A stretch of DNA of 64,000 bases from Myxococcota bacterium (lineage in GTDB: Bacteria; Myxococcota_A; Bradymonadia; UBA4248), in the NCBI GenBank assembly GCA_045643185.1, contig JAZUKH010000279.1, positions 3,301 to 67,300 of the forward strand, read 5' to 3'. Shown here in pieces: positions 42,672 through 47,292 of this stretch. The position numbers and the translations under genes are program-made. Below the pieces are notes generated by a model. The model saw only the letters and a program-made list of their open reading frames with translations, was not told the origin of the DNA and did not search any database. Position 1 is the first letter of the stretch. Every line of letters starts with the position of its first letter.

Positions 42672-43997
42672 TTAGTGCAGTGCAATGACCCACTGCAACG
42701 AGGCCTGACCAAGGCTTTCGTAAGCAAGAATGCCACACCGACCATTCGATTTCTGAATCGTCGGAACACGGCATTCTTGGTAGCCGGAACCAAGACCGGT
42801 AAATCCCTGATTGTCGCTTTCAGGCATTGTCACAACGAGGCCCTTCTCCTCAACCGATTCGACGCGAACCGTGTGGTTCTGAATGCTCGCCATGATCGCG
42901 TTGCCCTGACGAAGTTGCTCTTTGATCAATTCGCCCCAAAACGCTTTTTCGAGGCCTTTACGATCACCAGGCAGGCACATCGCGTGATAGCTCACACCCA
43001 TCGCATTGGCGATGGCGCCCCACGATGCCATCGAGTTCTGACCAGGTATTTTCTGGTCACGTTTGACCTGCTCAAGATAAGTTTCGTAAGGCAATTCCGA
43101 ATTTGGATTGCGCACACCAAGCAAGCGCAGACAGGCAGCCAGACATTCGAGCCCCTCGCCATCGCCACGAACAACAGGCGCTTTTGAATGACGACGTTGC
43201 GATGCCTCATAAGTGGATTTGCGCTGAAGTGCTTCGAACAGATCGCCACGAAGCTCCTCGGGGCAAGACTTGATCCATGTGCGCGCCTGCAACATCTCAG
43301 CTTCGGTCAGATCTTCCTTCGCCATAAGTTCGCGAAGGGCTTCCGGAGATTGAGCCAATGCATTCGACGACTTTTTGTCCTTGTCCCCTACCGCCTGACT
43401 GACATAATCCGTGTATTCAGCCGCGATGTAGCCAACCGCATCCCCCAGGTGTATCTCCAAAAATCCATCTTTTTCACCATACACATTGACCTTGTCTGCC
43501 TGACTCAGCACGCCTAACGAGTCAAAATCTTTGCCGGCACCTTGTCGAACGTGGATAGCCGAAACCATCACTGACGCCGAACCGATCGGTTTAGCCCCAC
43601 GGCCCCCCAAAGACGCATCCTCATAATCCGTTCGCCTAGCGTCGATGTACCCCACCTGACCATCGACGAGGATCTTCAGCTCATCGCCAAAGCGTCCAAG
43701 AATGTCGACTTTTGACGCCGATCTCAGCGGGGGCATACTCGTGCCGCTCTTCGACGGCCCTGAATGCACTTCGACTTCCTCTTCTCCAATAATCGTTGCG
43801 GAACCGATCGGTGCCATGGCGTTTGCGCCGTTTGAACCGCCCTTGTCAGACGCCTGAGCCATACCTTTATTCAAAACTGCTTTCGGGGGATCATCCAAAC
43901 GATTCAACGTCTTTTTTGCATCCGACTTGCGGCTGTTTTCTTTATCAAGTTTCTGCTTTAATCCGCCGTCTTTTTTGTCCTTCGCCTGATCGATCAT
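42672..43997 (-). CDS. Two tandem bacterial SH3 (SH3b)-like domains fused to a C39-like/papain-fold cysteine peptidase domain; no signal peptide
   Basis: SH3b-like repeats KVDILGRFGDELKILVDGQVGYIDARRTDY and KVNVYGEKDGFLEIHLGDAVGYIAAEYTDY. C-terminal GLECLAACLRLLGV (Cys nucleophile in a CxxAC(L/M) context), NHTVRVESV (HxVVV-type His) and ESDNQ. N-terminal 100 aa are Lys/Asp/Gly/Ser-rich and disordered. Confidence 0.55.
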   Translation of the reverse strand: MIDQAKDKKDGGLKQKLDKENSRKSDAKKTLNRLDDPPKAVLNKGMAQASDKGGSNGANAMAPIGSATIIGEEEVEVHSGPSKSGTSMPPLRSASKVDILGRFGDELKILVDGQVGYIDARRTDYEDASLGGRGAKPIGSASVMVSAIHVRQGAGKDFDSLGVLSQADKVNVYGEKDGFLEIHLGDAVGYIAAEYTDYVSQAVGDKDKKSSNALAQSPEALRELMAKEDLTEAEMLQARTWIKSCPEELRGDLFEALQRKSTYEASQRRHSKAPVVRGDGEGLECLAACLRLLGVRNPNSELPYETYLEQVKRDQKIPGQNSMASWGAIANAMGVSYHAMCLPGDRKGLEKAFWGELIKEQLRQGNAIMASIQNHTVRVESVEEKGLVVTMPESDNQGFTGLGSGYQECRVPTIQKSNGRCGILAYESLGQASLQWVIALH

Positions 43998-44122
43998 AAG
44001 GCCCTCTCCTGTGACAGTGGGAATAATCCAATCGCGTTTTTCAGAATTACAATACTATGCTGAACGACTCGGTCTGCGCGTCATATTCTTCGTCCCACGC
44101 GCAACACCATGGCTCAAGTCAA

Positions 44123-45361: not shown

Positions 45362-45474
45362 GATCGTTATCGCATTCTCCCACAAGGTCAAAGCAGTGCG
45401 CCATTACCAAAAAAGCCGGCTATCACCGGCTTTTTTGTTCATATCCATAATATATGGCGAAAAACTTTCAACGA

Positions 45475-47292
45475 TTAATTGTCACGCCTATTTTGTGTAT
45501 TGGCAATCGTGATCTCGCCTACAGCCGACATGAACGATTCCAAGGAGATCGTAAATTCACCTCTGTCTTTATCAACGTATTGTTCTTCATGGATATTGGG
45601 CACATTGGCACCATGCGGGTTTTGCAAACAGACTGTTGAAGCTTTAATATCAACATTCCGCATAACGGTCGCCAGATCGGCCTGATTCAAAGGCGAACCA
45701 TCTCGACCAACGAGATTGACATGATCGACGTTGTAGGCGTGGGTATTATACAGGAAGAGGTTACCATCCGTCGCACCGGCTTCAGAAGGTCTGAGATTAG
45801 CGACCATGCCGATGGCTTCGCGATAAAGCTGGTAATCGGAACCCGCTACGGTAGCAACCGCAGGGTCATTTTCGAGAGTCCTGGAATAGCTGTCCAGGGC
45901 CTGACAGTAGTTGCGTGCCCCCATGGGGTCGCCCATATACATTTTATTGTAATACTGCTGCGCACAGAACTGTATCCCCTCTACAGCTTGCATTGTATTG
46001 GGCAAAATCGTCGCGCCCGATGTGCTCAATAAATTTATCATCTTTGTCGACTTGTTATAGAGTCGACGCGCCGCTTCTAAGGCCGGCGTACCAGCCATCA
46101 TATGAACGTCGGTTTCCGAATGACCATCCTGAGCATGAGCCAGGTTGACAAGCTCACGAAACAGAATACGATTATCGGCAACAAGCGCATCGCCTTCATT
46201 ATTGCTTACGGTCATGATGGGCTTTTTGACTTCAGCATCGTCACCATAGAAAAGTGGCAGACAGTCGCACGAAAGTCCAAAGTTGATATTTTCAAAGCGT
46301 TCTGCATTCTTGACAAGACCATCACCAGCCTGTCCATATTTCATGGCGAATGCAGCAAAAGCCTGTTCGATGCAGTTGACCCAAAGAGCTGCTTCGTAAT
46401 AATCCGCTTTACTGATCTTGAGCGTATCCTCACTGATCGACGACGTCCAAACACTACGTTTCGGATCAAAATCGATACGGGCGCGCGACCCCATCATGTT
46501 CATCGTATTGATATTGGGGCCACCGCTAAAATTACGCTTGATGCATGAAAAATCCGTTTGAATCATCGTGGGAACCCAATGACCGTCAGTTCCCTTGTGA
46601 TAAAACGACGTCACGACTTTGTCCCCCATCAGGTGCATCATATTCATGATCTTGGCAGGTTCATAGTGAATGACCTGCAAAAGCGCCGATAGAAAATAAC
46701 AGTTATCCAGGTTGCCCTGATGAATGTCTTCCTGATACACGCTGTTATTTATAAATAGCGTCGGCTCGAGCTCATTCTTCAAGTTCGGCATCTGAAGCGT
46801 ACCCTGCAACTCATTGGCCTGTTGACCAGCAGGATTAGCCTCAACAAGTTCACCAAAAGAAGGATGACCAGCACCATGCTTCTCTACGGGCGTTTTCGTT
46901 ACATACGTATCCTTCTTATATTGCCCTGCTTCAGGATTGTTAACGGCGCCGGCATCCGTGAGATCCGCTTCGTAATTGTTCAGTTCTTCATGATTGCCCG
47001 TCTCGGGATCGACGTGCACCATGTTTTCGGTGGCTTCAAAACCTTCACGTCGGTAAGCATAGTTGGCATTGCCCACCTGCTGTCCCCAGCTTCCCGTGTT
47101 ATCAATGATCTCCGCCTGACCCATCGGCTGCATGGCATTGCCATCCTGGGCCTGGGGCGCCGCTGATGTCGAAAGGCCTTTCACCGCATCCTCAAGATCG
47201 CCATGAACGGGCTGAATGGCCTGAAGCTCAGTTTGACCAACTTTATCCAAGGTAAATTCTTTACTCATAGGTAATCTCCTTATAAAAAACAC
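45475..47292 (-). CDS. Calpain-like (peptidase C2 family) cysteine protease, cytoplasmic/effector-like
   Basis: QGNLDNCYFLSALLQV matches the calpain active-site motif QGxLGDCW(F/L)LAA (Cys about residue 198). THAYNV matches the GHAY(S/T)V catalytic His motif. QNPHG matches the RNPWG Asn motif. The N-terminal 190 aa are disordered and Gln/Gly/Asn/Glu-rich. No signal peptide. Confidence 0.6.
   Translation of the reverse strand: MFFIRRLPMSKEFTLDKVGQTELQAIQPVHGDLEDAVKGLSTSAAPQAQDGNAMQPMGQAEIIDNTGSWGQQVGNANYAYRREGFEATENMVHVDPETGNHEELNNYEADLTDAGAVNNPEAGQYKKDTYVTKTPVEKHGAGHPSFGELVEANPAGQQANELQGTLQMPNLKNELEPTLFINNSVYQEDIHQGNLDNCYFLSALLQVIHYEPAKIMNMMHLMGDKVVTSFYHKGTDGHWVPTMIQTDFSCIKRNFSGGPNINTMNMMGSRARIDFDPKRSVWTSSISEDTLKISKADYYEAALWVNCIEQAFAAFAMKYGQAGDGLVKNAERFENINFGLSCDCLPLFYGDDAEVKKPIMTVSNNEGDALVADNRILFRELVNLAHAQDGHSETDVHMMAGTPALEAARRLYNKSTKMINLLSTSGATILPNTMQAVEGIQFCAQQYYNKMYMGDPMGARNYCQALDSYSRTLENDPAVATVAGSDYQLYREAIGMVANLRPSEAGATDGNLFLYNTHAYNVDHVNLVGRDGSPLNQADLATVMRNVDIKASTVCLQNPHGANVPNIHEEQYVDKDRGEFTISLESFMSAVGEITIANTQNRRDN

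Follow-up and report, generated by a model that had tools for sequence, protein, structure and literature searches.

A long-insert calpain-type protease and its partner lipoprotein in a Myxococcota genome: a candidate effector-immunity pair beside an unrelated SH3b gene

Three adjacent genes on the minus strand of a Myxococcota genome raise the question of which of them act together, and to what end. They encode a calpain-like cysteine protease, a lipoprotein and a protein with two SH3b domains (the SH3 protein), and an earlier note, made from the sequence alone, had read them as a single toxin/effector or prey cell-wall attack module built around two papain-fold cysteine proteases. The DNA analyzed here, termed the window, is a stretch of 64,000 nucleotides (assembly GCA_045643185.1, contig JAZUKH010000279.1, positions 3,301 to 67,300), and all positions below are counted from its first letter. 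In NCBI records, the uncultured lineage from which it comes is labeled as Proteobacteria or Myxococcales. A scan for open reading frames (ORFs) in the window bore out the three minus-strand genes (45475-47292, 44123-45391, and 42672-43997; Table 1). These are two independent units, namely the protease with its partner lipoprotein, and a separate SH3 gene. For the first unit we favor, at about even odds (a probability of roughly 0.5), an exported effector or toxin protease with its cognate immunity lipoprotein, the SH3 protein being unrelated to it and non-catalytic.

To our knowledge, bacterial calpains are represented only by sequence surveys and a single characterized enzyme, Tpr of Porphyromonas gingivalis. 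The calpain-type Cys/His/Asn motifs that the earlier note had recognized in the window protease (QGNLDNCYFLSAL, THAYNV, and QNPHG) held up. The Pfam Peptidase_C2 profile (PF00648) scores above its gathering threshold (24.4 bits against a cutoff of 23.8), covering only residues 168-201 around the Cys, and it also matches 42 of 42 aligned relatives, with a best E-value of 1e-10. Across 131 representatives, Gln184, Cys190, His510, Tyr512, Asn550, and Pro551 are invariant and H552 is conserved in 95%; N550, P551, and H552 belonged to the motif by which these representatives were selected, and H510 and Y512 formed no part of it. The oxyanion-hole Gln184, six residues upstream of Cys190 and likewise 100% conserved, aligns with its counterparts in calpain-8 and calpain-1. 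Moreover, a profile of 42 family sequences matches 19 calpain sequences in the PDB (best E-value 1.8e-10), with four collinear blocks in the two best alignments: QGGiGDCYfLAA, lWvpLlEKAYA, sHAYsV, and dGeFtlsLdqFlrnF. The likeness to the calpains (MEROPS C2) hence comprises both the Gln/Cys/His/Asn set, embedded in the QGxxGDC[YW], HAY, and NP[HW] motifs, and an EKAYA-type helix and a C-terminal DGEF...F block that are collinear with solved calpains. By these sequence criteria, the window protein is a genuine member of the calpain family (clan CA, family C2) with an intact catalytic set. Bacterial calpain homologues as a class are already known, 66 of them having been surveyed by Rawlings in 2015 (PMC4631099), and as in most of these the peptidase domain is C-terminal, with neither EF-hands nor a signal peptide (PMC4631099). 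Calcium sites are generally absent from the bacterial homologues (PMC4631099), and Pfam finds no EF-hand or C2-like domain in the window protease. Searches of the PDB with the single sequences of the protease and of the lipoprotein gave no match, NCBIfam holds no family for either, and PADLOC returned no defense-system match among six genes.

What sets the protease apart from the known calpains is its spacing, which the earlier note had rightly called unusually long: 320 residues separate the catalytic Cys and His, against about 157 in calpain-1. The distance from Cys to Asn is 360 residues, close to the family median of 375 over the 131 representatives. Judged from the offsets between the family profile (303 to 478) and the calpain-8 chain (193 to 241), about 125 extra residues lie between the EKAYA block and the His and about 30 more after the Cys; overall, the insert before the catalytic His amounts to about 130-160 residues. 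The long Cys-to-His spacing is a trait of the family. Known calpains differ in lacking this insert before the His and the smaller one after the Cys, and Pfam detects only the Cys motif of the window family; they differ further in that the window family has a conserved downstream beta-helix partner and is frequently fused to the eCIS_core/DUF4157 domain. Neither such inserts, nor lipoprotein partners, nor eCIS_core fusions are mentioned in the 2015 survey of bacterial calpains (PMC4631099).

The subfamily is also large. When 1.84 billion representatives in a metagenome-scale library were searched exhaustively with a profile, 470 clusters (at 50% identity) were recovered at E<=1e-3, of which 122 reach E<=1e-30, and the matches span the whole region from about residue 150 to 605. 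For the metagenome scan, alignment A8 took the place of the broad alignment A6, which was too divergent. The impression of extreme rarity left by a word-indexed search, which had found four protease relatives, was overturned by this count, and the earlier note's remark that bacterial calpain-like proteins are rare is overstated, both in view of the 470 clusters and of the existing 2015 review (PMC4631099). Two family members carry two calpain-like modules each. A scan of genome contigs found the protease in UBA4248 only, and searches of plasmids and viral contigs gave no match.

The second gene encodes the partner. Its most likely start is ATG 45361, just as that of the protease gene is most likely ATG 47268, where an AAGGAG lies upstream and the product begins with MSKEF, like P0001 and homologues. 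The NCBI record of the lipoprotein (P0191, 369 aa) begins at an internal Met further downstream (region 45203-45361), and its start is probably mis-called, as it would drop the signal peptide and lipobox common to all homologues. The signal, FTFITVCLMAFGCAC, is hydrophobic, with a Kyte-Doolittle (KD) value of 2.14, and the VSGC and CAC lipoboxes of homologues line up with its lipobox Cys, which is Cys20 or Cys22. That the middle gene encodes a lipoprotein ending in four MPSxLGA heptads, as had been stated, is borne out by this lipobox Cys and by the tandem repeat detected by TRF. The heptads occur in none of the homologues and are lineage-specific. In the AlphaFold2 (AF2) model (predicted local distance difference test score, pLDDT, 60; predicted template modeling score, pTM, 0.62), the heptad tail falls below a pLDDT of 50, and the body is predicted to be a right-handed parallel beta-helix of the pectate-lyase-like kind, a reading that a fold match shares. 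The lipoprotein matches no Pfam family. Conservation of polar residues is nearly nil, only D71, E129, N183, and N277 recurring in at least 9 of 11 partners in an alignment that is unreliable at such divergence.

The pairing of the two genes is conserved well beyond the window, with homologous partners 3' of the protease gene in nine lineages or more. It stands immediately downstream in Myxococcales bacterium UBA4248 and related assemblies (L001-L004, L011, L017), and immediately 3' of the protease in L012/L013, L016, and L044. In the high-GC loci L022-L025, whose proteases are 27-33% identical to that of the window, the proteins encoded next downstream form one homologous set, all but that of L022 have a lipobox, and their profile aligns with that of the window-type partner over 206 columns (hhalign probability 91.7%, E-value 7.8e-7). 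Conversely, all three non-self partner clusters retrieved adjoin a calpain-like gene or its remnant. The genes around the pair differ between lineages, and therefore the pair moves as a cassette. Of the neighborhood conservation that the earlier note had put up for checking, then, the protease-lipoprotein half stands, and the three genes together form no conserved cluster. The partner diverges faster than the protease, its identity being lower in every comparison that yielded a full-length partner alignment (protease versus partner 37 versus 22%, 36 versus 26%, and 44 versus 26%). In one locus (L043, 113-6815), a decayed protease gene that keeps its N-terminus and C-terminal end but has its catalytic core deleted is followed by two intact tandem partner paralogues, an intact protease gene, and an unrelated gene for a 535-aa putative lipoprotein. 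The array resembles orphan immunity gene arrays and displaced cassettes. The extended reading frame of the 535-aa lipoprotein gene also has an SGDAM motif. Beside the UBA4248 pair (L003, 3365-9313) is an array encoding no fewer than six paralogues, each starting with a zinc-ribbon motif (MQIQCPKCKQW...C..C), after which comes a transmembrane segment; no Pfam family is on record for these proteins.

Conserved adjacency, a faster-diverging partner, and orphan partner copies are together the marks of an effector-immunity pair. In the periplasm-acting pairs of type VI and type IV secretion systems (T6SS and T4SS), such as the Tae/Tai amidases and X-Tfe/X-Tfi, the immunity proteins are periplasmic or lipoproteins. 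The window protease resembles these effectors in lacking a Sec signal and in standing immediately upstream of an exported partner, which in the family evolves fast and has orphan copies. It differs in that the window family has no marker domains of T6SS or T4SS such as PAAR or VgrG, a single relative having one weak XVIPCD match, and in that the window-type partner is an unusually large beta-helix.

A further line of evidence comes from the N-terminus. As the earlier note had held, both the protease and the SH3 protein lack a Sec signal; their N-termini are hydrophilic, with no hydrophobic signal or transmembrane segment. Among relatives with extended N-termini, eCIS_core (PF13699, formerly DUF4157), a marker of toxins of extracellular contractile injection systems (eCIS), was found in 5 of 9 and in 26 of 50 (31 of 59 together), next to OmpA (7), LysM (3), and PG_binding_1 (1). 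One relative (P0035) has a C-terminal ADPrib_exo_Tox (ADP-ribosyltransferase exotoxin) domain besides its calpain-like module, and in L025 the gene of a protease with eCIS_core and C2 domains overlaps that of the partner lipoprotein downstream of it. An N-terminal DUF4157 with a C-terminal toxin domain is the signature of eCIS-associated toxins (PMC8213781, PMC11297309), and the supplement of PMC8213781 counts Peptidase_C2 itself among the 'cloud' domains enriched in eCIS (odds ratio 29.6 and q 0.042, from 2 genes), where its only label is 'eukaryotic domain'; calpain is discussed in the main text of neither study. The family is thus like the eCIS-associated toxins in that about half of its N-extended members carry eCIS_core ahead of the catalytic domain, and in that the hydrophilic N-terminus of the window protease has an aromatic residue in its first eight. 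The window protease differs from them in having no DUF4157, no eCIS operon among the scanned window ORFs, and a partial N-terminal fit; moreover, it has a conserved partner, whereas many of the tested eCIS-associated toxins have no adjacent immunity gene (PMC8213781). About 20 of 29 close relatives without DUF4157 share a Phe at position 5 (MSKEF, MDPEF, MSREF) and G-D-[A/S/G]-M at residues 28-45. The bearers of this signature include the window protease (residues 1-45, 47134-47268), P0004, P0033, P0034, P0037, P0041, and others, and their N-termini are otherwise divergent and disordered; the G-D-[A/S/G]-M stretch may be a recognition or processing site. In one distant relative (L022, 3370-5499), the gene directly upstream of the calpain-like one encodes an AAA ATPase of the Cdc48 type that has a winged-helix domain, an arrangement reminiscent of eCIS operons, at whose 3' end an ATPase gene precedes the toxin gene. 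As eCIS context this ATPase was set aside, being Cdc48-like and non-specific, with nothing else of the kind found among the distant relatives.

We propose the following course of events. The long-insert protease, with its disordered N-terminus of about 165 residues, would leave the cell by a non-Sec route, candidates being contractile-injection and other contact-dependent systems with genes outside the window, and would cleave protein or peptide targets in the envelope or the cell of a recipient. The lipoprotein would be exported by Sec/Lol and anchored in the periplasm or outer membrane of the producer, where it would bind and neutralize incoming or mislocalized protease as an immunity protein. 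As the lipoprotein is exported and the protease has no Sec signal, the two can meet only if the protease leaves the cytoplasm. Export, toxicity, target, and neutralization by the lipoprotein are inferred. The effector model is the best supported in that the toxin-type fusions and peptidoglycan-binding modules of relatives, a partner that evolves faster than the protease, and its orphan copies then fit together. Of the earlier toxin/effector proposal with an immunity or chaperone lipoprotein, the effector reading with an immunity lipoprotein survives, agreeing with the fusions of relatives, the faster partner, and the orphans, and the inclusion of the SH3 gene does not. More tentatively, and with somewhat less confidence than for the window pair, we suggest that the long-insert calpain-like domain may define an undescribed family of exported or injected protease toxins, occurring stand-alone (with the F5 and G-D-[A/S/G]-M signature) or as eCIS_core-fused cargo, with the beta-helix lipoprotein family as its cognate immunity.

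Several observations weigh against the effector-immunity reading. As for delivery, the window protease lacks DUF4157 or any other trafficking domain, and DUF4157 is absent from its neighbors; no secretion, injection, or eCIS genes (sheath, tube, baseplate, spike) were found among 37 further window ORFs, the scan running up to position 52523; and the neighbors are housekeeping genes (gap-pgk-tpi, mevalonate kinase, Hsp70). The N-terminus fits the eCIS signal only loosely: the signal is hydrophilic, disordered, and positively charged and has an aromatic residue among its first eight (PMC11297309), and the window protease has a summed KD over residues 1-35 of -13.1 and F5 within the first eight but a charge of -1 over residues 6-21. 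As for the partner, at 350-410 aa the beta-helix lipoprotein is larger than one would look for in an immunity protein and not typical of one, and its model is of moderate confidence (pLDDT 60). The partner of L022 has no signal peptide or lipobox, and the genes downstream of the protease are unrelated in L014/L018, L019, L020, and L027-L029. Finally, a strong hairpin stands between the protease and lipoprotein genes in the window (45408-45437; -21 kcal/mol, z -4.5, none of 200 shuffles being equally stable). In UBA4248, the protease stop and the lipoprotein start instead overlap as TAATG, and the coupling of the pair may be regulated differently in the window than in relatives with the overlapping stop and start.

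Some of these points would suit an intracellular calpain. A window protease with neither a signal peptide nor a trafficking domain, in a housekeeping neighborhood with no delivery genes among the scanned ORFs, might act on the cell's own proteins in regulation or quality control, as calpains do in eukaryotes, the lipoprotein then being an envelope protein under its control, at the level of precursor or turnover, or one that is merely co-regulated, and neither having a toxin role. However, a cytoplasmic protease and an exported lipoprotein would normally not meet, yet their pairing persists down to 27% protease identity; the eCIS toxin marker in about half of the N-extended relatives, the ADP-ribosyltransferase toxin domain in one, and the intact partner copies kept beside a decayed protease gene are also hard to accommodate, and we consider this explanation unlikely.

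A secreted or surface-displayed degradative protease that serves to acquire nutrients or to remodel the matrix, with the beta-helix lipoprotein as its anchor, export helper, or co-acting glycan binder or degrader, would account for the peptidoglycan-binding modules of some relatives and for the tight coupling of the genes in relatives. We regard it as less probable still: the partner offers nearly no conserved polar residues from which an active site could be made, and evolves faster than the protease; orphan or duplicated partners persist beside a dead protease; and the eCIS_core fusions point to injected cargo rather than to an exoenzyme. The effector-immunity reading of the protease-lipoprotein pair is hence the one we retain, and it leaves the third gene to be accounted for.

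The SH3 protein consists of a disordered, Lys/Asp-rich N-terminus, two SH3b domains, a helical linker, and a domain of C39-like fold. Its model has a pLDDT of 76, falling below 50 at residues 1-8 and 21-59, which agrees with the disordered N-terminus claimed for it. The two SH3b-like domains claimed in the earlier note were likewise recovered, both in the model as SH3 beta-barrels and one by a Pfam profile match (SH3b, PF08239). The first ten residues (MIDQxKDKKD) are almost invariant in 26 homologues and the next 50 are disordered and variable; the protein combines SH3b domains of the cell-wall type with the lack of an export signal. An N-terminal motif apparently common to the protease (GNAMQPMGQA) and the SH3 protein (ANAMAPIGSA) was rejected, the stretch in the latter being the first SH3b strand, where D/N-A-M is unconserved.

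The C39-like core proposed for this protein stood as a fold, and its catalytic dyad proved not to be conserved. The C-terminal domain adopts, in the predicted structure, a C39-type papain fold. At the sequence level, a profile of the domain has no Pfam or PDB match up to E=10, and C39 (PF03412) was discarded. Twenty-seven full-length homologues were recovered, and among 26 members the putative catalytic columns are degenerate: position 285 has N in 13, A in 8, H in 3, and C in 2; position 289 has S in 14, C in 10, and A in 2; and position 375 has Q in 15, H in 5, L in 3, and I, E, and R once each. No Cys or His is invariant in the C-terminal domain of the family, and only the window copy has both Cys285 and His375. 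The earlier note had itself named unconserved catalytic Cys/His in homologues as grounds for giving up its second active protease, and this is what the family displays; most likely, the SH3 protein is a pseudo-peptidase and the locus contains no second protease. Its C39-like domain is probably a module for binding rather than catalysis, much as in HlyB, whose C39-like domain is degenerate. The C39 domains of ComA, PCAT1, and HlyB are different in that the domain of the SH3 protein shares no sequence similarity with them, is neither fused to an ABC transporter nor beside one (none was found in the five SH3-gene contexts examined), and comes after a pair of SH3b domains and a helical linker.

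The genomic contexts separate this gene from the pair. In UBA4248, the SH3 homologue lies on DGWW01000030 and the protease pair on DGWW01000204, and in longer assemblies of UBA4248 the two are flanked by different neighbors on all sides. A profile search found no SH3 homologue in 34 protease- or partner-carrying loci, a set apart from L043 and L044. Instead, the SH3 gene keeps company of its own, with a small ORF of 63-70 aa and a DUF1844 gene (Table 1); it is unrelated to the protease pair and conserved with these neighbors. In L007, an Hsp70 gene also neighbors the SH3 gene. The reading of all three genes as one attack module, with two active cysteine proteases and a chaperone or immunity lipoprotein between them, can draw on their adjacency on the same strand with short gaps (125 bp between the lipoprotein and SH3 genes), on the confirmed C39-like fold, and on the Cys and His that the window SH3 protein happens to have at C39-like positions, but it is very improbable given the unconserved Cys and His columns in the other 25 family members, the lack of a C39 sequence match, the different UBA4248 contigs and neighbors, and the 34 loci without an SH3 homologue, and nothing was found in support of a three-gene module for attack on prey cell walls.

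Table 1. Features of the protease-lipoprotein pair, the SH3 gene, and its neighbors in the window.
Feature	Position	Strand	Remarks
Calpain-like (C2 family) cysteine protease gene	45475..47268	-	597 aa from ATG 47268; ORF extends to GTG 47292
Protease domains		-	residues 1 to ~165 hydrophilic; residues ~165-597 catalytic domain
Catalytic Cys190 codon (TGT) in QGNLDNCYF	46699..46701	-	100% conserved; aligned to calpain QGxLGDCW
Family-specific insert, residues ~345-505	45754..46233	-	approximate boundaries; conserved N366, L373, R402
Catalytic His510 codon (CAC) in THAYNV	45739..45741	-	aligned to calpain SHAYSV
Asn550 codon (AAC) in QNPHG	45619..45621	-	counterpart of Asn in calpain NPWG
13-bp hairpin with A-run and T-run flanks, between protease and lipoprotein genes	45408..45437	-	terminator-like or attenuator-like
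Partner lipoprotein gene	44123..45361	-	412 aa from ATG 45361, beginning MTHQHVTFTFITVCLMAFGCAC
Four 21-bp tandem repeats, encoding the MPSxLGA heptads in the Pro/Ser/Gly-rich C-terminal tail	44149..44232	-	TRF: period 21, 4.0 copies, 93% matches
Separate SH3 gene	42672..43997	-	441 aa
SH3b domain 1, residues 65-119	43641..43805	-	structure model
SH3b domain 2, residues 139-192	43422..43583	-	Pfam SH3_3, E-value 2.7e-10; PDB SH3b 2krs, 2kq8; structure model
C-terminal alpha/beta domain, residues 283-440	42678..43151	-	C39-like papain fold (predicted); degenerate catalytic columns
Conserved small ORF, 63 aa	42380..42571	-	53% identical ORFs downstream of SH3 homologues in L005, L007
DUF1844 gene	42108..42368	-	Pfam E-value 4.7e-24; order with SH3 gene kept in L005-L008

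The 730-bp spacer upstream of the protease gene contains two further elements. A 147-bp tandem repeat (47569-47952) comprises 2.6 copies, 94% identical, each unit closing, on the strand of the gene, with a 12-bp hairpin followed by a run of T; small-RNA genes in tandem or a stack of terminators could account for such units. No further copy exists in the window, and Rfam has no family for the repeat. Closer to the gene, about 150 bp before the start of the protease, is a 27-nt inverted repeat (47417-47473), 96% complementary with a 3-nt loop. No Rfam family matches the window at gathering thresholds, and the permissive matches obtained in the upstream spacer, at the 27-nt inverted repeat, were dismissed as generic hairpin matches to miRNA models.

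Elsewhere, the window encodes two FG-GAP repeat proteins (13456-16422, 988 aa; 35074-38103, 1009 aa), a Ser/Thr kinase (16540-17766) just after the first of these, and a sigma-54-type AAA activator (25532-28525) between the two. The Hsp70 homologue (39492-41060) has only 522 aa, matching positions 1-512 of the 599 of its Pfam model, and its C-terminal lid region is apparently absent.

The cassette combines elements of known kinds, namely bacterial calpain homologues and toxin-immunity pairs. What the search brings to light is a large, annotation-invisible subfamily that keeps the calpain catalytic set, adds a big insert, and is repeatedly fused to the eCIS toxin marker. We offer the hypothesis that calpain-type proteases may serve as interbacterial or anti-host toxins, paired with a new type of immunity protein. 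If this is true, the cassette would represent a new effector-immunity family, and its beta-helix lipoprotein a new fold for immunity against a protease.

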